A stretch of DNA of 64,000 nt from an uncultured Acidobacteriota bacterium (GTDB lineage: Bacteria > Acidobacteriota > Polarisedimenticolia > J045), in the NCBI GenBank assembly GCA_963702425.1, contig CAVPCQ010000035.1:1-64000 (forward strand). The letters run 5' to 3'. Shown in pieces: positions 31,617 through 39,113 of this stretch. How positions within the stretch are numbered: the first letter of the stretch is position 1; the number at the start of each line of letters is the position of its first letter. The notes below the pieces were generated by a model that was given only the letters and a program-made list of their open reading frames with translations, made no database searches and was not told the DNA's origin. The position numbers and the translations under genes were made by a program.

Positions 31617-32913
31617 ATGGCCTACAAGACGATCCAGGTTCCGGAAGGCGACAAGATCACCCTCAAGGACGGCAAGCTCACCGTGACCGACCGGCCGATT
31701 CTCCCGTTCATCGAGGGCGACGGCACCGGCCGCGACATCTGGCGGGCCTCGGTCCGCGTGCTCGACGCCGCGGTCGCCAAAGCCTACGGCGGCAAGAAGA
31801 AGATCGCCTGGATGGAAGTGCACGCCGGCGAGAAGGCCTTCAACAAGTTCAACACCTGGCTCCCCGACGAGACGGTCGACGCCTTCCGCGAGTACCTGGT
31901 CGGGATCAAGGGGCCGCTGACGACGCCGATCGGCGGCGGGATCCGCTCGCTCAACGTGGCGCTGCGGCAACTTCTCGACCTGTACGTCTGCCTGCGCCCG
32001 GTACGCTGGTTCGAGGGGGTCCCCTCGCCGGTGAAGCACCCCGAGAAGGTCAACATGGTGATCTTCCGCGAGAACACGGAGGACATCTACGCCGGGATCG
32101 AGTTCGAGTCCGGCACCCCGGAGCTGAAGAAGGTCCGGGACTTCCTCGCCCAGAGCTTCCCCGACATGTTCAAGAAGATCCGCTTCCCCGACAGCGGTGG
32201 CGATCGGCATCAAACCGGTCTCGCGCGAGGGGACCGAGCGGCTGGTCCGCGCGGCGATCCGGTACGCCCTCGAGCACAAGCGCAAGAGCGTCACCTTCGT
32301 GCACAAGGGCAACATCATGAAGTTCACCGAAGGGGCGTTCCGCAACTGGGGCTACGAGCTGGCCGAGCGCGAGTTCGGCGACCGCGTCTACACCTGGGAG
32401 CAGTGGGAGCGGACCAAGAAGGACAGGAGCGAAGAGGCGGCCAACGCCGAGCAAAAGGCCGCGCTGGGGGCCGGCCGGTTGCTGATCAAGGACGCGATCG
32501 CGGACATCACGCTGCAGCAGGTCCTGACCCGTCCCGACGAGTTCGACGTCGTCGCGACGCTGAACCTGAACGGCGACTACCTCTCCGACGCCCTGGCCGC
32601 GCAGGTCGGTGGAATCGGGATCGCGCCGGGCGGCAACATCAACTACCTCACCGGCCACGCGATCTTCGAGGCGACGCACGGCACGGCCCCCAAGTACGCC
32701 GACCTCGACCGGGTCAATCCGGGCTCGGTCGTCCTGTCGGGCGAGATGATGCTGCGCCACCTCGGCTGGGGCGAGGCGGCCGACCGGGTGATCAAGGGTC
32801 TCGACGGGGCGATCGCGGCGAAGACCGTGACCTACGACTTCGCGCGGCAGATGACCGGCGCGAAGGAGATCAAGTGCTCGGAGTTCGGTGACGCGGTGAT
32901 CGCGCACATGTGA
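31617..32913 (+). CDS. icd: NADP-dependent isocitrate dehydrogenase (frameshift near 32195)
   Basis: [61 protein letters not shown]. Confidence 0.95.
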
Positions 32914-32920
32914 ATCCCGC

Positions 32921-32949
32921 GGCGGGGCCGGCCGACCCGCCGGCCCCGC
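32921..32949. terminator. GC-rich hairpin between convergent genes
   Basis: GCGGGGCCGGC/GCCGGCCCCGC stem right after the icd stop; no U-tract. Confidence 0.5.
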
Positions 32950-32957
32950 GACCTGCC

Positions 32958-33686
32958 TCAGACTTCGTTCGACTGCTTGTTCCGGACGAGGTAGTAGCGG
33001 GTCGTGCCGGCCGGGGGAGCCACGGCGTCGTTGTAGGTCGTTCCAGCCGAGCCGCCGATCGGGTCGGTCGTCGTGCGGCCGGTGTTGAAGGTCCGGTCGT
33101 TGGCCGCGATCTCCACCTTGAACGTCCCGTCGCCGCCGGTCCACGACAGGTTCGCCACGCTGACGTTGCGGGTCACGGTGAGCACGATCAGCCGCGACAC
33201 CTTGAGCGTCCCCGACATCCCGGGAAGACCGTTGTGCTGCGGGTTGTCGTGCTGGCGGCAGTAGAAGCCCCACTGCGAGTCGGCCGGGAAGGCGCTCGCC
33301 GCGTAGCTGCAGGTGGCGTCGACGTTCGCGCTGGGGGGGGCCGAGATGTTGCCGGTGTCCCACTTGCAGGCCGGCGGCGCCGGGTTCGCGCAGGAGTTGA
33401 CCCCGTCGTCGGGACAGGTGTCGGACGCGCCGCTGTGCACGCCGCCGGTGGCGTCCCAGAAGATGCAGTCTCCGGGCTCGATGACGGGCCGCGTCGGGGT
33501 GAAGCTGAAGCTGGCGACGGTGATCTTGAGCGTGCGCGGCGCAGCGAGCTTCTGGCACGCCGCGGGCGGCGTGGCCGCGCCGGCGCAGTTGGACGTGCGG
33601 CACGTGGTCTGGGCGCGCGCGGGCGGAGCGACGAGAACGAGAGCCGCGAGCAAGGCGGCGAGGGTGAGCGGGAGCGGATGGCGCAT
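32958..33686 (-). CDS. Secreted cupredoxin (type-1 copper) domain protein with C-terminal FN3-like domain
   Basis: Signal peptide; FSFTPTRPVIEPGD.IFW, VHSG, FYCRQH...PGMSGTLKV (His, Cys, His, Met ligands); many additional Cys. Confidence 0.78.
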   Translation of the reverse strand: MRHPLPLTLAALLAALVLVAPPARAQTTCRTSNCAGAATPPAACQKLAAPRTLKITVASFSFTPTRPVIEPGDCIFWDATGGVHSGASDTCPDDGVNSCANPAPPACKWDTGNISAPPSANVDATCSYAASAFPADSQWGFYCRQHDNPQHNGLPGMSGTLKVSRLIVLTVTRNVSVANLSWTGGDGTFKVEIAANDRTFNTGRTTTDPIGGSAGTTYNDAVAPPAGTTRYYLVRNKQSNEV

Positions 33687-33704
33687 CGCAAGTCCTCCTG
33701 TTGC

Positions 33705-33730
33705 GGGCCGGCACGGAGGCCGACCCCTAC
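33705..33730. repeat. GTAG-type REP palindrome
   Basis: GGGCCGGCACGGAGGCCGACCCCTAC. Confidence 0.85.
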
Positions 33731-35093
33731 GGATGTGGGGGAGAGGAGCCGGGTCCGCTTGCCGGCAGGGAGGCCGGCTCGGGGACCGGAGGAGAGGCCG
33801 GTCGTGGGGTACGGCGGCGGAAGGCGGAGCGGTCGAAGGTTCTCACGATGTTGAAGCCCAGCCGGAACTCCCCCTCGCCCCAGTCGAGTTCGCCGCCCGG
33901 CGCGTAGAGGCTGGTGTGGGTCCCGTTCGTGTTGGTGAGCACCAGCCGGAAGACGTGGCGCGCGGTGAAGATCGAGAAGGCGATCGACCCCGACTGGTAG
34001 GGCGCGTCGACGCCCGCCAACTGGCCGATCCACTCGCCGGTCAGCGCGAGGTAGGAGTTGAGCCACAGCTCGCCGCCCAGACCCAGCGCGACGGTGCCGT
34101 CGGTGTCGGCGGGATCGAACGGATCGGTGCGGGTTGCGATCATCGGGACCGCCAGCAGCGAGAGTCGCTCGCCGAAGCGCCGGGCCAGCGGCAGCGAGAG
34201 CGAGACGCGGTTCCGGTTGGCCGCGTTGCGGTCCTGCAGGTACTCGTAGCCCAGGACCGCAGAGAACGACAGCGGCGCGCCGCCGGGCCGTTGCCGGGCC
34301 AGGGCGTACTTGCCGTACGCCTCCCAGTCCTTGAAGAGGTTCGTGCGCCGCAGCCCGAGATCGACGCGCTCGCCCAGCCCGGCCGCGACGCCGAACGAGA
34401 TCCACGCGCCGCCGTCGAGCCCGCCCAGGTTGTACCAGCCGGCCTCCTTCACCGACTCCTTGAAGCGGTGCAGGAAGCGCATCTCGAGACCCGACGCGCC
34501 GAGCGTCTCGGTCGTCGGGAGGTTGATCAGGTGGGTGTCCTGGAAGATCGGGACCGGGCGCTCGTCGCGCGGCGCCGGCGGGATGGCGGCCTGCTCGGCG
34601 ATCGGCGGCACCGGCTCGGGGTCGCCCCACACGGCCGGATCGAACGATCCGATCCAGTCGCGCAGCACGGCCTCCTCGTCCGCGCCGAGCGGCGGCGCGT
34701 GCATCGGCATCCGCGGGCCGCGGGTGCGCCCTTCGGCCAGCGGCAGCGTCTTGAGGAAGAGCGCGCTGCGCTCGGGGTGGCCGGGATCGACGAGGAGGAG
34801 TCCGGGCTGGGTCCGGGAGGGGACGTTGACCGTGGACCGGGACAGCCTTCGAGGGGAAAGATCGAGCCCGGCCTCGGGCTCCTCCTCGCCATGGCAGTTG
34901 GTGCAGCGCGCGGCGACCAGGCGCTGCGCGGCGGCGTAGGCCGCGGCTTCGGTGGTAGCCGCGGCGGGTGAACGTCGAGCCTGGCGAGCGCCGCCAGGAC
35001 GGCCAGCGCGGCCAGCCCGGAACGGGCCGCGGCGCGGGCCCGCGGCCGTTCCGGCGCCGCGCGCGGCGCGTCAGTTGTTCGGCGCGCCGTCAT
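33727..35093 (-). CDS. Monoheme cytochrome c domain fused to a DUF5777-type outer-membrane beta-barrel (frameshift near 34975 after the signal peptide)
   Basis: The frame is open upstream of the listed ORF: ARCTNCHG...LDL...VDPGHPERS...RMP...LRDWI, then FQDTHLINLPT...HRF...GLDG...HVFRLVLTN...GFNIVRTF. Confidence 0.8.
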
Positions 35094-35556
35094 CGATCCA
35101 CTCGCGGATCACGTCGATCTCTTCGACCGAGAGCGCGCCGCCGACCGGCATCCGGTCGCCGACGATGCCGCGGCCGGTGATCTTGTGGACCAGGTAGGAG
35201 CTGCGGCTGGCACCGGGCTCGATCCGGAACAGCGGCGGCAGCTCGCGGCTCGGCACGCCGACCGCACCGAGCGCGGGATCGTAGAGCCGGCCCGGCTCCA
35301 GCGAGAGATTCATCTCCGGGCTCGCGCCGCCGTGACAGGGGACGCAGTTGAGGTTGAAGATCGGCTGGACCTGGCGGCTCAGGCTGATCGTGCCGCCGGA
35401 GGGGTCGAGCGGGTCCGGGAAGATGCGCGGGTCGGCGTTTCGACACCCGGCACCCGCGAGCAGCGTTGCGAGCGCAACCAGCGACGGGAGCGGCCGTCGT
35501 TGCGTGCTGCCGGCGAAACCCCTGTGCGCTGCGGGCACCCGTTCCCCTCCCCTCAC
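35071..35556 (-). CDS. Lipoprotein monoheme cytochrome c (planctomycete-type)
   Basis: Lipobox LLAGAGC; VQPIFNLNCVPCHG, IEPGASRSSYL, RMP, IREWIDDGA. Confidence 0.85.
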   Translation of the reverse strand: MRGGERVPAAHRGFAGSTQRRPLPSLVALATLLAGAGCRNADPRIFPDPLDPSGGTISLSRQVQPIFNLNCVPCHGGASPEMNLSLEPGRLYDPALGAVGVPSRELPPLFRIEPGASRSSYLVHKITGRGIVGDRMPVGGALSVEEIDVIREWIDDGAPNN

Positions 35557-35623
35557 GACTGGAGAGCGAGGATGCGGGGCCCGCGGACCCGGCGTCTGTG
35601 ACCTGGGTCCGCTGACTTAGGAG

Positions 35624-36067
35624 TCAGTCCGTAATCGCGCGCAGCAGCAGGTCGAGTGCTTCACGGTAGCCCTCGGCCCCCTTCCCGTCGACCGCCGCGA
35701 CGCAGGCCGGCCGCACGACGCTGACTTGCCGCCAGGCCTCGCGCTCGGCGAGACGCGAGAGGTGGACCTCGACCACCGGCTTGCCGAAGTCGAGCAGCGC
35801 GTCGAGCAGCGCGTAGCTGGTGTGGGTGAAGGCGCCGAGATTGACGAGCGCCCCGTCGACCGTGCCGGCGTGATACTGCAGCGCGTCGATCAGCGCCCCC
35901 TCGTGGTTCGACTGGACGAAGACCGTGCGCGCCCCGCGCTCGGCGGCCCAGGTCGCGACGCGCGCCTCGAGCTGGGGCAGCGTGAGCGTGCCGTAGTGCG
36001 CCGGGTCGCGCCGCCCGAGACGGTTCAGGTTCGGGCCGTGCAGGACGAGCAGCGTCCGCGGGATCAC
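35624..36067 (-). CDS. aroQ: Type II 3-dehydroquinate dehydratase
   Basis: LHGPNLNRLG.R.P..YG, QSNHEG, HTSYAL.DA, EVHLS. Confidence 0.95.
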   Translation of the reverse strand: MIPRTLLVLHGPNLNRLGRRDPAHYGTLTLPQLEARVATWAAERGARTVFVQSNHEGALIDALQYHAGTVDGALVNLGAFTHTSYALLDALLDFGKPVVEVHLSRLAEREAWRQVSVVRPACVAAVDGKGAEGYREALDLLLRAITD

Positions 36068-37695
36068 GCGAGTTCCTCCGCCAGGAGGGCGCCCACCGTC
36101 GCCGACGGCACCGCCGCGATCATGACCTCGCCCGCGCGCACCGGCAGCACCCACGGCTGCTCGCCGCCGGCCCGCTTCTTGTCGTGCGCCAGCGCCTCGG
36201 CGAGCGCCTCGCGCTCCGCCGCGGCGAGCGCCGGAAGCGCGGAGGGCAGCCCGAGGGCATGAAACAGGGCCGGGACGCGGTCGAGCAGGGGGCGCTCCTT
36301 CAGGATGCCGGCGCGATCCGCCAGCTCGAGCGCGAAGACCGTGCCGATCGCCACCGCCTCGCCGTGTCCCAGCGGCGCCGGGCGGGCCCGGGTCGCGGTC
36401 TCCAGCGCGTGGCCGAGCGTGTGACCGAGGTTGAGCTTGCGGCGCTCGTCCTTTTCCTCGAGATCGCGCTCGACGATCGTCAGCTTGACGCGCGCAGCGC
36501 GGCTCGCGACCTCCTCGAGTTGCGGCAGCGGCCAGCCCGCCTCGCGCGCCGCCCCCTCCTCGATCGCCTCGAGCAGCGCGGCATCGCCGATCAGCGCGCT
36601 CTTGACCGCCTCGGCCATCCCGGCGGCGATCTCCGCCGGGGGCAGCGTGAGCAGGAACAGCGGGTCGAGGTGCACGCGGTCCGGCAGGCGCACGGTGCCG
36701 ACCGCGTTCTTCGCTCCCGCGAGGTTGATCCCGTTCTTCCCGCCCAGTGCGGCGTCGAGCTGCGCCAACAGCGTCGTCGGCAGGAGCGCCAGCGGCACGC
36801 CGCGCTTGAAGGTGTCGGCGGCGAGGCCGGCCAGGTCGGTGATCGTCCCGCCGCCCGCCGCCCAGAGCGGCATGTCCTTGTCGAGACCGGCCTCGAGCAG
36901 CGCGCTCCAGACGCGCGCGAGCGTCTCCGGCGACTTGGCCGGTTCGCCGCCGGGGATCTCGAGCCAGGCCAGCCCGCCCGGTGCGTGGGACGCGAGCGGC
37001 CCGCGCAGCGCATCCCTGTGGCAGGCCGGGAGGTGCGCGTCCCAGAGCATCGCGGCGCGCAGGACCGGCGGAAACGGCAGGGCTCCACGGCCGACCGTGA
37101 CCCCGCGCGCCGATGGCAGCTCGGGCGCCAGGGGCCGTGCGCGGTCGGCCCACGGCCCGGCGTCGTCGGCATAGAGCGCGCGCAGCACGCTCACCGCGAC
37201 GTCGCGCGGCCCGCTGCCGCCGGTGTCGAGACGGACGTCGGCGCGGGCATACCCCGCCGCGCGCTCGCGCCGCAGGTCCTCGAGCCGCGCCACGCGATCG
37301 GCCGCGCTCGCCAACAGCGGCCGTGCGGCCACCTCGTGTGCGGCGAGGCGCGAGGCGAGGTCCTGCGCCGGCGCGTCGAGGTGGACGATTGCCGCGCGCC
37401 GCGCCAGCGCCTCGGCCAGCGCGGCGTTCTCGAGCGTGCCGCCGCCGACCGCGAGCACCTCCGGCCAGGCGTCGGGCGGGCGGGCCAGCCAGAGCCGGGC
37501 CGCGCGCTCCTCGGCTGCACGGAAGACCGGCTCGCCGGCGGCGAAGAGGGCCGCGATCGAGCGCTGCTCGAGGATCTCGATCCGCGCGTCGAGGTCGACG
37601 AAGGCGCGCTCGAGCATCGCGGCCACGAGCCGGCCGACGGTCGTCTTCCCCGAGCCCATCGGGCCGGCCAGGACGAGATCGCGGCGCGCGCTCAC
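36064..37695 (-). CDS. Bifunctional shikimate kinase / 3-dehydroquinate synthase (AroK-AroB fusion)
   Basis: GPMGSGKTT Walker A, then GGGTITD, PTTLLAQLDAALGGKNG, LNLGHTLGHALE, HGEAVAIG. Confidence 0.92.
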   Translation of the reverse strand: MSARRDLVLAGPMGSGKTTVGRLVAAMLERAFVDLDARIEILEQRSIAALFAAGEPVFRAAEERAARLWLARPPDAWPEVLAVGGGTLENAALAEALARRAAIVHLDAPAQDLASRLAAHEVAARPLLASAADRVARLEDLRRERAAGYARADVRLDTGGSGPRDVAVSVLRALYADDAGPWADRARPLAPELPSARGVTVGRGALPFPPVLRAAMLWDAHLPACHRDALRGPLASHAPGGLAWLEIPGGEPAKSPETLARVWSALLEAGLDKDMPLWAAGGGTITDLAGLAADTFKRGVPLALLPTTLLAQLDAALGGKNGINLAGAKNAVGTVRLPDRVHLDPLFLLTLPPAEIAAGMAEAVKSALIGDAALLEAIEEGAAREAGWPLPQLEEVASRAARVKLTIVERDLEEKDERRKLNLGHTLGHALETATRARPAPLGHGEAVAIGTVFALELADRAGILKERPLLDRVPALFHALGLPSALPALAAAEREALAEALAHDKKRAGGEQPWVLPVRAGEVMIAAVPSATVGALLAEELA

Positions 37696-38894
37696 CGCTC
37701 GCGGTCCTTCGGCCAGCGCGGCAGCCGGCCGCGGTATGCGGCGAGCGCGGCGAGCAGGTCGGACAGCGCGTCGCCGCCGAACTTCTCCAGCAGCGCGTCG
37801 GCCAGCACGATCCCGGCGACCGCCTCGGCGATCACCGTCGCCGCCGGGACGACGGTGACGTCGCTGCGGATGTAGCGTCCCTCCACCGCGCGGCCGGTGT
37901 CGAGGTCGACCGACGGCAACGGGCGCTTGAGCGTGGAGATCGGCTTGAGCGTCAGCCGCACGACCAGCGGCTGGCCGTTCGTGACGCCGCCTTCCAGACC
38001 GCCGGCCCGGTTGCTCTCGCGGCCGAGCCTGGCCCCGGCGCGGGCGATGACGTCGTGCGCGTCGTGCCCGATCGACCGGCCGGCAGCGAGCGCGTCGCCC
38101 AGCTCGACTTCCTTGACGGAGGGGATCGCAGCCAGCGCCGCGGCCAGCCGCGCGTCGAGTCGCCGGTCGTGCTGGACGTAGCTGCCGAGGCCGGGCGGCA
38201 GGCCCCACACGATCAGCTCGACCCGGCCGCCGAGCGTCTCGCCCTGCGCCAGGGCCTCGTCGATGAGGGCCACCATCGCCTTCGACGCGACCGGGTCGGC
38301 GGAAGCGACCGGCGACGCGTCGCGCGCCTTCTCCAGCCGGTCGGCGGCTGCGGCGGCGGGTGCCGCACTCGTGCCGGCGCCGTCGTTCGCCCCGTCCTCC
38401 GTTCGGCCCGGATGAGGCGCCGCAGGGATCCCGCCCAGCTCGATCACGTGCCCGGCGAGCCGCGCGCCGGTCAGCTCGAGCAGCCGGCAGGCCGCCGCGC
38501 CGAGCGCGACGCGCATCGCGGTCTCGCGCGCCGAGGCGCGCTCGATCACCGGGTTGGCGTCGGCGAAGCCGTACTTGAGCATCCCGGCGAGGTCGGCGTG
38601 GCCGGGACGCGGGACGGTCTTGCGCACCGTCGTGCGGCCCTGCCGGTTCGAGCGGTTCTCGATCAGCACGGCCAGCGGCGCGCCGGTCGTCTCGCCCTTC
38701 CAGACCCCGCCGACGAGCTGCGGGCGGTCGGCCTCGAAGGTCATCCGCTTGCCGCGGCCGTAACCGCCCATCCGGCGCTTCATCCGCGGCGCGAGGTCGC
38801 GCTCGGCGAGCGGGATCCCGGCCGGCAGCCCGTCCAGAATCCCGACCAGCACCGGGCCGTGCGATTCCCCGGCGGTGAGGTACCGAAGCGCCAT
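37692..38894 (-). CDS. aroC: Chorismate synthase
   Basis: LRYLTAGESHG, PRPGHADL, ERASARETA, SNRAGGLEGG, KPISTL, RSDV. Confidence 0.97.
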   Translation of the reverse strand: MALRYLTAGESHGPVLVGILDGLPAGIPLAERDLAPRMKRRMGGYGRGKRMTFEADRPQLVGGVWKGETTGAPLAVLIENRSNRQGRTTVRKTVPRPGHADLAGMLKYGFADANPVIERASARETAMRVALGAAACRLLELTGARLAGHVIELGGIPAAPHPGRTEDGANDGAGTSAAPAAAAADRLEKARDASPVASADPVASKAMVALIDEALAQGETLGGRVELIVWGLPPGLGSYVQHDRRLDARLAAALAAIPSVKEVELGDALAAGRSIGHDAHDVIARAGARLGRESNRAGGLEGGVTNGQPLVVRLTLKPISTLKRPLPSVDLDTGRAVEGRYIRSDVTVVPAATVIAEAVAGIVLADALLEKFGGDALSDLLAALAAYRGRLPRWPKDRER

Positions 38895-39006
38895 CCATCC
38901 TCCGTCCCGGGAGAATCCCCCATGAAAACCCGCACCAAGACCGACAGCATGGGTCCCGTTGAGGCCCCGCCGGCCGCTACTGGGGCGCGCAGACCGAGCG
39001 CTCGCG
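38817..39006. repeat. Left copy of an ~190-bp degenerate direct repeat (aroC head, spacer, fumC head)
   Basis: Aligns by eye with 47091-47281. Confidence 0.9.
38922..39006 (+). pseudogene. 5' remnant of fumC
   Basis: MKTRTKTDSMGPVEAP, then a frameshift into [10 protein letters not shown], then homology stops. Confidence 0.85.
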
Positions 39007-39113
39007 CCGCTGAGTCGGTGCCGTGAGGCAACCGCGTTGTCGTGACGGATCACCAGGAAATCGCGGCCGGACGGGGTCGTGGCAAGGCCCAACGGGTAAC
39101 TTCAGCTCAGTCC

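Follow-up and report, generated by a model that had tools for sequence, protein, structure and literature searches.

A haem domain fused to a DUF5777 barrel, with lipoprotein cytochrome and cupredoxin genes, in an uncultured Acidobacteriota bacterium: a candidate outer-membrane electron relay

To our knowledge, Cyc2, whose gene is used as the marker for neutrophilic iron oxidation, is so far the only family of fused cytochrome-porins on record. Has the same design been assembled elsewhere from other components? This question is raised by a locus in a stretch of 64,000 nucleotides from an uncultured sediment bacterium of the Acidobacteriota (class Polarisedimenticolia; assembly GCA_963702425.1, contig CAVPCQ010000035.1, positions 1 to 64,000; hereafter the window), in which the list of open reading frames (ORFs) and their translations place three co-oriented minus-strand genes, a, b and c, that fill positions 32958-35556. 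An initial annotation of this DNA had proposed that the three genes encode a new outer-membrane electron conduit made of a cytochrome lipoprotein, a cytochrome-barrel fusion and a blue copper protein, and all three were recovered on the minus strand where it had placed them. As described below, the locus appears to repeat the Cyc2 design from unrelated parts: its haem domain is of the FoxE type, and its 12-stranded barrel belongs to an unstudied family. Our judgement is evenly balanced on whether a, b and c make up an envelope relay for single electrons with an anchor at the outer membrane.

The central component is gene b, which is listed only as a 327-residue ORF (33727-34710) whose ATG is the Met codon of a conserved RMP motif (RGPRMP). 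The listed frame stays open for 86 more codons upstream, through the haem motif CTNCH (34891-34905), and this upstream stretch contains no ATG, GTG or TTG. The claim made earlier that the listed ORF hides an in-frame haem domain is therefore borne out by the open frame. The motif is the only one of its kind in b, located at residue 22 of the mature-region reading. Across the 46 rows of the b alignment, C25 and H26 are kept in at least 90% and M87 and P88 are invariant, and the haem would be ligated by His and Met. In the AlphaFold2 (AF2) model, residues 1-126 form a helical cytochrome domain. When a family profile of this domain was searched against PDB, FoxE was the top match (E-value 3.4e-4); the single sequence gave no PDB match, and FoxE was found by profiles only. 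With a score of 21.1 bits the domain falls just short of the PSCyt1 (PF07635) cut-off of 22. The next segment is a proline-rich linker of about 30 residues that differs in length and sequence among homologues, and whose mean predicted local distance difference test score (pLDDT) is 58-59 over residues 121-140 and drops below 50 at residues 133-135.

The C-terminal 237 residues of b match DUF5777 (PF19089) over the full length of the profile (positions 1-247 of 247; E-value 5e-41; 141 bits against a cut-off of 23.1), and a search of the genome with PF19089 (142.9 bits) identified this as the sole copy. Thus, what had been called a DUF5777-like barrel is a true member of the family, and the AF2 model of b (46 sequences, pLDDT 87.6) places 12 strands between residues 160 and 379. 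An invariant NLPT segment precedes the barrel, and the invariant set of DUF5777 also comprises HRF, GLD, R, E, GH.F and GFN..R.F. Foldseek searches with the model returned 12-stranded outer-membrane barrels first (NanC, 3.5e-7), and VIA-align likewise listed KdgM (Z 18.1, root-mean-square deviation 2.0, 167 aligned), FapF (18.0), VhGalP (17.4), the COG4313 channel (17.1) and NanC (16.8). The most conserved loops of the barrel are two long extracellular ones, and these loops, along with conserved residues of the lumen, hint at a specific site, the ligand of which they do not name. No NCBIfam family reached its cut-off for a, b or c, and a full-text search of one literature library found no paper in which DUF5777 is named.

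Even-stranded outer-membrane barrels have their N-terminus in the periplasm, and the haem domain of b would accordingly be periplasmic and tethered under the barrel. With 12 strands and a haem domain of about 110 residues on a flexible linker, b is unlikely to hold its haem within the pore in the manner of Cyc2; a domain of 110 residues does not fit into a barrel as small as KdgM. A different arrangement, in which a bis-His haem is held inside the barrel by the invariant residues H167 and H338, was rejected because, by topology, H167 would lie where strand 1 ends on the outer side and H338 where strand 11 starts on the periplasmic side.

The 5' end of b requires separate comment. The translation from ATG-35093 (MTARRTTDAPR...LAALAVLAALA) aligns with homologue N-termini, and this ATG overlaps the end of gene a by 23 nucleotides. 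Given that the family start lies in another frame than the haem domain, a shift of 2 nucleotides (modulo 3) is required near 34969-34990, a range that includes the indel position of about 34975 given in the initial annotation. Contigs of the public runs X1, X2 and X4 that span the break differ from the window by indel sums of -11, -11 and -2 nucleotides, respectively, and every one of these sums puts ATG-35093 in frame with the haem domain (3/3 covering runs; the contigs come from related strains, most of them 95-99% alike, and run X3 has no cover at the break). Downstream of the break, b is open for 413 codons and is 94% identical to its counterpart in the nearest genome (G004), and the leader is hypervariable and rich in indels between strains.

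We consider the break most likely an assembly indel, because the isocitrate dehydrogenase gene icd in the same window is also broken, yet is intact in G004. This gene (31617-32913, plus strand) is split between two frames near 32195-32215, its halves lying in ORFs 31617-32891 and 32197-32913, and G004 encodes an intact 431-residue protein. The icd split is probably an assembly indel, which suggests that other frameshifts of this assembly are errors as well. The fusion within b is regarded as real, since the related-strain contigs are in frame in all covering runs and homologues carry the same fusion; an assembly artefact, named at the outset as a possible explanation, does not account for it.

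Two further explanations for the break were rejected. Read-through of the gene a TGA into b disagrees with homologues, which start b at the overlapping ATG with a signal peptide of its own, and with the related contigs, which are in frame with that ATG. A programmed frameshift would have to occur in an indel-rich, hypervariable leader that has no conserved slippery sequence. The TGA of gene a (35071-35073) shares its frame with the b haem domain, with no other stop across 34906-35070, and this we judge to be coincidental. At its other end b carries a proline-rich tail of 35 residues. In most homologues little follows the terminal ...GFNI.RTF strand, and in the X2 and X4 contigs positions 33709-33812 are replaced by 28 other letters.

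Gene a had been described as a lipoprotein with CVPCH and a distal RMP, and each of these features is invariant in all 11 rows of its alignment: the lipobox Cys38 (35443-35445) that closes the hydrophobic leader, C71, C74 and H75 of the haem motif (35332-35346), and M136-P137 of RMP (35146-35151; Met codon 35149-35151). The context of Cys38 varies among rows (AGC, TAC, VGC, VAC and GAC), and by its lipobox cysteine the product is predicted to be a bacterial lipoprotein. The second GTG (35536-35538), which lies behind GGAGG, may be the true start. Pfam gave gene a only matches below cut-off (Cytochrome_CBB3, 19.9 bits versus 27; PSCyt1, 12.9 versus 22). The PSCyt1-like assignment proposed for this locus is therefore retained as a relationship, with both haem domains scoring below the family threshold. 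A family profile of gene a found FoxE (5mab) as its top PDB match (E-value 1.6e-7), with both FoxE domains aligning. Gene a is also 38% identical to the haem domain of b over residues 15-109 (E-value 5.5e-8), and judging from this similarity the two are paralogues.

How firmly are a and b associated? Gene b is matched in 15 of the 41 related genomes sampled. Of the 12 inspected loci that have a fused b and sequence upstream of it, 11 carry a lipoprotein gene resembling a immediately before b (G000, G004, G003, G001, G015, G008, G017, G028, G370, G273 and G011; the exception is G388). Wherever this was read, the two genes overlap by 17-23 nucleotides at the start of b, and gene a is translationally coupled to b. 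Beyond the pair the surroundings differ, with a large peptidase-like gene adjoining in G015 and a GntR regulator and folate genes in G008. Because this wider neighbourhood is not conserved, a-b behaves as a self-contained cassette, and on the strength of its gene order we view the pair as the conserved core of the locus. One relative (G001, L023 5643-7367) has a and b in a single frame of 574 residues in which the last ~30 residues of a are unmatched, which may reflect a frameshift error or else a genuine fusion of a and b.

The check by complex prediction that had been recommended for the partners yielded, for a and b, an ipSAE of 0.38 versus 0.00 for the best control, with runs agreeing in at least 87% of contacts and a partner pLDDT of at least 80. 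The mark for a complex is reached by 58 of 80 solved complexes and by 2 of 110 mismatched pairs, and at ipSAE values of 0.60 or less it is reached by only 7 of the 80 solved complexes and by both mismatched pairs that passed. The prediction thus lends weak support to contact between a and b.

A broader survey indicates that the haem domain and the barrel are partners in both fused and separate form. The 45 non-self homologues of b from a large protein collection all carry PF19089, and 42 of them cover at least 86% of the fused query. When the b profile was searched against 401 genomes of the phylum, some part was matched in 210 and the full length in only seven (G370, G004, G000, G023, G273, G388 and G028, where a contig end truncates the match); these tallies include two unpublished genomes, G062 and G086, the loci of neither of which were inspected. 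Many other genomes have a barrel-only match, with the haem domain encoded by a small gene of its own at most a few hundred bases away (split pairs include those of G363, G092, G117, G077, G105 and G387), and in a third group the haem domain resides in a protein of about 490 residues encoded 1-2 kilobases downstream of the barrel (G116, G139 and seven more).

A profile of the barrel alone, applied at E-values up to 1e-3, collected 2618 representatives of 50%-identity clusters. Among the best 150 of these, 91 are stand-alone barrels, 42 are fused to this haem domain, six are fused to another CXXCH domain such as Cytochrome_CBB3, four have a long N-terminus without a haem motif, and seven are fragments, in a sample that leans towards the query profile, half of which was built from fused proteins. 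The expectation that DUF5777 barrels usually stand alone near small cytochromes agrees with this majority and with the adjacency of the split pairs, and the fusion is not the only one of its kind, given that about a third of the best-matching representatives are haem-fused. The 42 representatives carry CXXCH in 24 cases and CX4CH in 18 (e.g. C-A-M-P-G-C-H), and the FoxE/PSCyt1-like haem domains of the alignments made here likewise alternate between the two forms.

In a FastTree tree of 140 barrel domains (unrooted, with FastTree support only, and after 10 partial matches had been dropped), the fused or stand-alone state changes at least 16 times, and the starred branches force at least seven changes for this fusion; such counts can include apparent fusions that stem from frameshift errors or wrong gene calls where two genes adjoin. 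Taken together, these comparisons portray the fusion as neither an artefact nor unique, and as a recurrent state of a cytochrome-barrel partnership. By the Rosetta-stone argument, repeated fusion and fission suggests that the cytochrome and the barrel act together. A second kind of fusion joins a Cytochrome_CBB3-type haem domain to DUF5777 in proteins of 370-448 residues (L031 5339-7901 of G116, L038 and L039), and is followed by a protein of about 465 residues with a FoxE/PSCyt1-like haem domain at its C-terminus.

Gene c begins 40 nucleotides beyond b, with AGGAGG located 7 nucleotides before its ATG. The initial annotation had seen in it a secreted cupredoxin with complete His/Cys/His/Met ligands, and the ligands hold up in a family of 37 aligned rows, in which C143, H146 and M157 are invariant and H84 and eight cysteines are kept in at least 90%. 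The ligand codons lie at 33435-33437 (H84), 33258-33260 (C143), 33249-33251 (H146) and 33216-33218 (M157), and the spacing is H84 ... C143-x2-H146-x10-M157, with a loop length that varies among homologues. No Pfam family matched c at E-values up to 1, Copper-bind (PF00127) included; a distant homologue (P0110) carries PF00127, and JGI records label homologues of c as 'plastocyanin'. With the AF2 model (pLDDT 88.7), Foldseek placed auracyanin first (1qhq, E-value 7.8e-5, probability 1.00), followed by azurin, pseudoazurin, plastocyanin and amicyanin. By its modelled fold and its ligands, c is thus classed as a secreted type-1 copper protein. The FN3-like domain at its C-terminus also matches G000:C10:86563-86763 and parts of predicted proteins of 1000-1200 residues in G030, G394, G161 and G402.

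Table 1. Coordinates in the window of the a-b-c genes, the parts of b and an adjacent repeat
Feature	Position	Strand	Remarks
Gene a, monohaem lipoprotein cytochrome c, FoxE/PSCyt1-like type	35071..35556	-	ORF, 161 residues as listed
Gene b, 5' part: family ATG (35091-35093) and signal-peptide region	34969..35093	-	Other frame than the rest of b
Gene b, haem domain	34612..34968	-	CTNCH 34891-34905; RMP Met codon 34708-34710
Gene b, proline-rich linker	34546..34611	-	Between haem domain and barrel
Gene b, DUF5777 domain, 12-stranded outer-membrane beta-barrel	33835..34545	-	PF19089 and AF2 model
Gene b, C-terminal proline-rich tail and stop	33727..33834	-	Strain-specific
Gene c, secreted disulfide-rich type-1 cupredoxin with C-terminal FN3-like domain	32958..33686	-	242 residues
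Inverted repeat, perfect 11 base pairs, GC-rich, 6-nucleotide loop	32922..32949	.	Between the convergent stops of c and icd

The tie between c and the a-b pair is looser. Gene c adjoins b in all three congeners (G004, G003 and G001) and only in the genus of the window. The proposal of a cupredoxin partner thus stands in so far as c is conserved nearby, and fails in so far as c belongs outside the conserved core. Other cupredoxins recur beside related pairs. In a member of the same family (G011, L044 5941-8410), an a-like gene and the beginning of a fused b, which the contig end cuts off, come after a gene for a protein of 547 residues that weakly matches the LVIVD repeat and has a Copper-bind domain at its C-terminus. 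In a member of another class (G387, L034 5655-9237), two Copper-bind (PF00127) proteins, one of which also has Calx-beta and FN3 domains, are encoded directly upstream of a split pair of lipoprotein cytochrome and DUF5777 barrel.

Close orthologues of c, collected at E-values up to 1e-5, occur in 34 of the 401 genomes, and in four of the six orthologue loci inspected c heads an operon (G194, L040 5328-8790; G308; G289; G402; not G378 or G270). In these operons, which belong to sister lineages within the class, c is followed by a Cys-containing secreted protein of 125 residues, a dihaem cytochrome c with a membrane anchor, a lipoprotein cytochrome resembling a, a CXXCH-porin-like protein of 360 residues and a GntR regulator of the kind that adjoins a-b in G008. 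The 360-residue protein has an N-terminal CXXCH and a porin-like body that ends in VYF. Searches with the G194 protein found no Pfam family and no meaningful PDB sequence match, and a protein atlas returned unnamed clusters only, together with one in which 20% of members have Porin_O_P. Its plan is that of Cyc2, with both its barrel nature and its membership in Cyc2 being putative. If this plan holds, then the same cupredoxin and lipoprotein cytochrome would combine with either of two unrelated haem-barrel proteins.

What might such a set of proteins do? As a best guess, drawn by analogy, the set would take single electrons from a small reductant, perhaps Fe(II), at the outer membrane. A small reduced species would reach the tethered haem of b through or at the barrel, the electron would pass to lipoprotein a and on to soluble carriers such as c, and it would end in the aerobic chain at one of three haem-copper oxidases, the genome having three COX1 genes. 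Fe(II) is proposed as a first guess for the reductant because FoxE is an Fe(II) oxidase and because the set mirrors Cyc2, Cyc1 and rusticyanin. The initial annotation had argued that the logic of cytochrome, cytochrome-porin and cupredoxin is built here from different parts, and this idea gains from the FoxE relation, from the recurrence of non-orthologous cupredoxins (G011 and G387) and from the operons of c orthologues. It loses ground where it would extend to a haem in the pore, and electron transfer, substrate and direction remain proposals.

Several points weigh against this relay and should be considered with it. FoxE is a distant homologue, and the choice of substrate is a guess. No conserved neighbour links a-b to a respiratory complex, and the flanks in G015 and G008 are unrelated; c was not found beside b in the G015, G008, G017, G028, G370, G273 and G388 loci, which represent seven other genera. 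RuBisCO was not found in the genome (91% completeness); consequently, iron lithoautotrophy by the Calvin cycle is not indicated, and a supplement to heterotrophy or detoxification would be the alternative. The conserved residues predicted by strand parity to face the lumen are, among small residues, mainly Arg, Lys and Glu, and such a lumen would fit an anion or a plugged barrel too. The placement of the b haem domain relative to the barrel depends on topology rules and on a linker modelled with low confidence. Finally, b is frame-broken as assembled in the window, and b of G004 has a similar discontinuity at a nearby but different spot, or else a GTG start with a poor leader.

With these caveats in mind, other explanations can be compared with the proposed oxidation. 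Monohaem His/Met cytochromes and cupredoxins work in both directions, sequence fixes no direction, and the Arg/Lys-rich lumen would suit an anionic acceptor, such that respiratory electrons might instead flow outward to Fe(III), Mn(IV), humic quinones or an oxyanion, or serve metal reduction for uptake. We nevertheless find this unlikely, given that the Acidobacteriota loci inspected have neither a quinol dehydrogenase nor a multihaem wire next to the pair, and that FoxE, the only functionally characterised relative of the haem domains, oxidises Fe(II) according to a passage of PMC10654088.

The repeated fusion and fission of barrel and c-type cytochrome argues for a joint redox role, as do three independent cupredoxin associations and the composition of the c-orthologue operons, which consist entirely of redox carriers and a haem-porin. 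It would therefore be improbable that the barrel is a solute channel or a mere anchor, that the cytochromes serve non-respiratory roles (peroxide or radical detoxification, redox sensing, or the handling of haem, copper or iron) and that c is an unrelated neighbour. This explanation draws on the closest folds, which are substrate-specific channels and enzymes (KdgM, NanC, the COG4313 channel, PcoB and LpxR), on the restriction of the b-c link to one genus, and on the unrelated neighbourhoods in which a-b is found.

A true Cyc2-type conduit across the outer membrane, with the haem placed in the barrel or at its outer mouth and the substrate kept outside, has still less to recommend it and seems to us quite unlikely. 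The overall plan of b agrees with Cyc2 as outlined in part of PMC8406198, and, like the rus operon outlined in part of PMC10654088, the locus has cytochrome and cupredoxin genes as partners. Against this stand the 12 strands, which put the barrel in the KdgM/NanC size class and leave a lumen too small for a haem module of about 110 residues; the low-confidence, proline-rich linker and an N-terminus made periplasmic by topology; and the identity of the barrel as DUF5777, a family in which the majority of barrels stand alone without haem (91 of the best 150). Very unlikely indeed is a decaying module in which b is a pseudogene of this strain and the frameshift is real, given that, although b is frame-broken as assembled and G004 lacks an in-frame ATG and signal peptide, the essential-type icd gene is likewise frame-broken in this window and intact in G004, a sign of assembly indels, and b itself retains its long open frame, its identity to G004 and its in-frame contigs.

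The comparative case for treating the proposed relay as one unit comes from the repeated fusion and fission, the conserved paralogous lipoprotein partner and the recurrent cupredoxin neighbours. We consider three aspects to be new here: the Acidobacteriota form that has both the lipoprotein and its fused paralogue, the quantified repetition of fusion and fission, and the connection to cupredoxins with an apparent swap of the type of haem-barrel protein. Should the proteins serve metal oxidation or some other extracellular exchange of electrons, then many bacteria from a wide range of lineages, Acidobacteriota among them, would possess an overlooked redox interface with their surroundings. A bolder generalization, which we regard as doubtful, is that DUF5777 barrels and FoxE-type cytochromes form a widespread minimal system for outer-membrane metal (Fe(II)) oxidation that is interchangeable with Cyc2-like haem-porins. 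Under that generalization Polarisedimenticolia would wire the same type of cupredoxin and lipoprotein cytochrome either to a DUF5777 fusion, as in this genus, or to a 360-residue CXXCH-porin, as in G194, G308, G289 and G402. Were it true, surveys that use only Cyc2 and Mto markers would miss iron-oxidation potential in sediment and soil. The system is small, with two or three genes for monohaem proteins, and lends itself to tests by the methods used for Cyc2PV-1, as reported in part of PMC8406198.

The neighbouring genes are of a different character. An aroQ gene lies upstream of a, at a distance of 67 nucleotides, and belongs to a co-oriented group of aroQ, a fused shikimate kinase/dehydroquinate synthase gene and aroC (35624-39092, minus strand). 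Downstream of c, icd is convergent. Both aroQ and icd also flank the a-b-c module in G004. The hairpin between the convergent stops (Table 1) is without a T-run and could possibly act as a two-way terminator; it is not among the sites listed by a consensus terminator scan. A consensus scan of 32700-36200 listed one terminator-like site, inside the aro genes, at about the level of shuffled sequence, and no promoter-like site.

How does the locus compare with known systems? The MtrCAB, PioAB/MtoAB and Geobacter Pcc systems resemble it in that an outer-membrane barrel is genetically coupled to c-type cytochromes. The Mtr, Pio and Pcc systems thread a multihaem cytochrome through a barrel of at least 20 strands, whereas here each protein has one haem motif and the 12-stranded barrel is too narrow to sheath a protein. 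The locus is therefore not an Mtr/Pcc-type complex. The KdgM/NanC group and other 12-stranded barrels (FapF, the COG4313 channel, PcoB and Tsx) are like the b barrel in fold and size. They differ from it in that identity is only 6-15%, that b has no Pfam match beyond DUF5777, and that DUF5777 is associated with cytochromes.

FoxE of Rhodobacter ferrooxidans SW2 (5mab) is the closest solved relative of both haem domains, with which it has the motifs C..CH, PG(D/E)P, RMP.G and WI..GA in common. FoxE itself is a soluble dihaem protein of the periplasm, with FoxY and FoxZ encoded alongside, whereas a and b are single-haem proteins, the one lipid-anchored and the other fused to a barrel. A passage of PMC10654088 describes FoxE as a dihaem cytochrome that is said to extract electrons from Fe(II).

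The closest parallel in design is Cyc2, as known from the rus operon of Acidithiobacillus and from Cyc2PV-1 of Mariprofundus. In the part of PMC8406198 that concerns its architecture, Cyc2 is given a signal peptide, one haem motif near the N-terminus and a 16-stranded C-terminal porin in about 440 residues; the rus operon, in a passage of PMC10654088, pairs it with genes for a partner cytochrome and a cupredoxin. Like Cyc2, b combines a signal peptide, a single CXXCH and a barrel in one polypeptide, the signal peptide being out of frame in this assembly, and genes for another cytochrome c and a type-1 copper protein accompany it, as the counterparts of Cyc1 and rusticyanin. Each of the parts is different. 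The barrel of Cyc2 is 16-stranded and PhoE-like, and that of b is 12-stranded and DUF5777; the haem segment of Cyc2 is short and N-terminal, whereas b carries on its linker a whole FoxE/PSCyt1-like fold of about 110 residues. The partner cytochrome of the rus operon is a dihaem c4, and here it is a monohaem lipoprotein paralogue; and c belongs to a disulfide-rich family with an FN3-like tail that is separate from rusticyanin. Because the modelled barrel has 12 strands instead of 16 and belongs to another Pfam family, we do not class b as a member of Cyc2, a distinction made by strand number and family and not by sequence comparison, and we regard b as being like Cyc2 only in plan.

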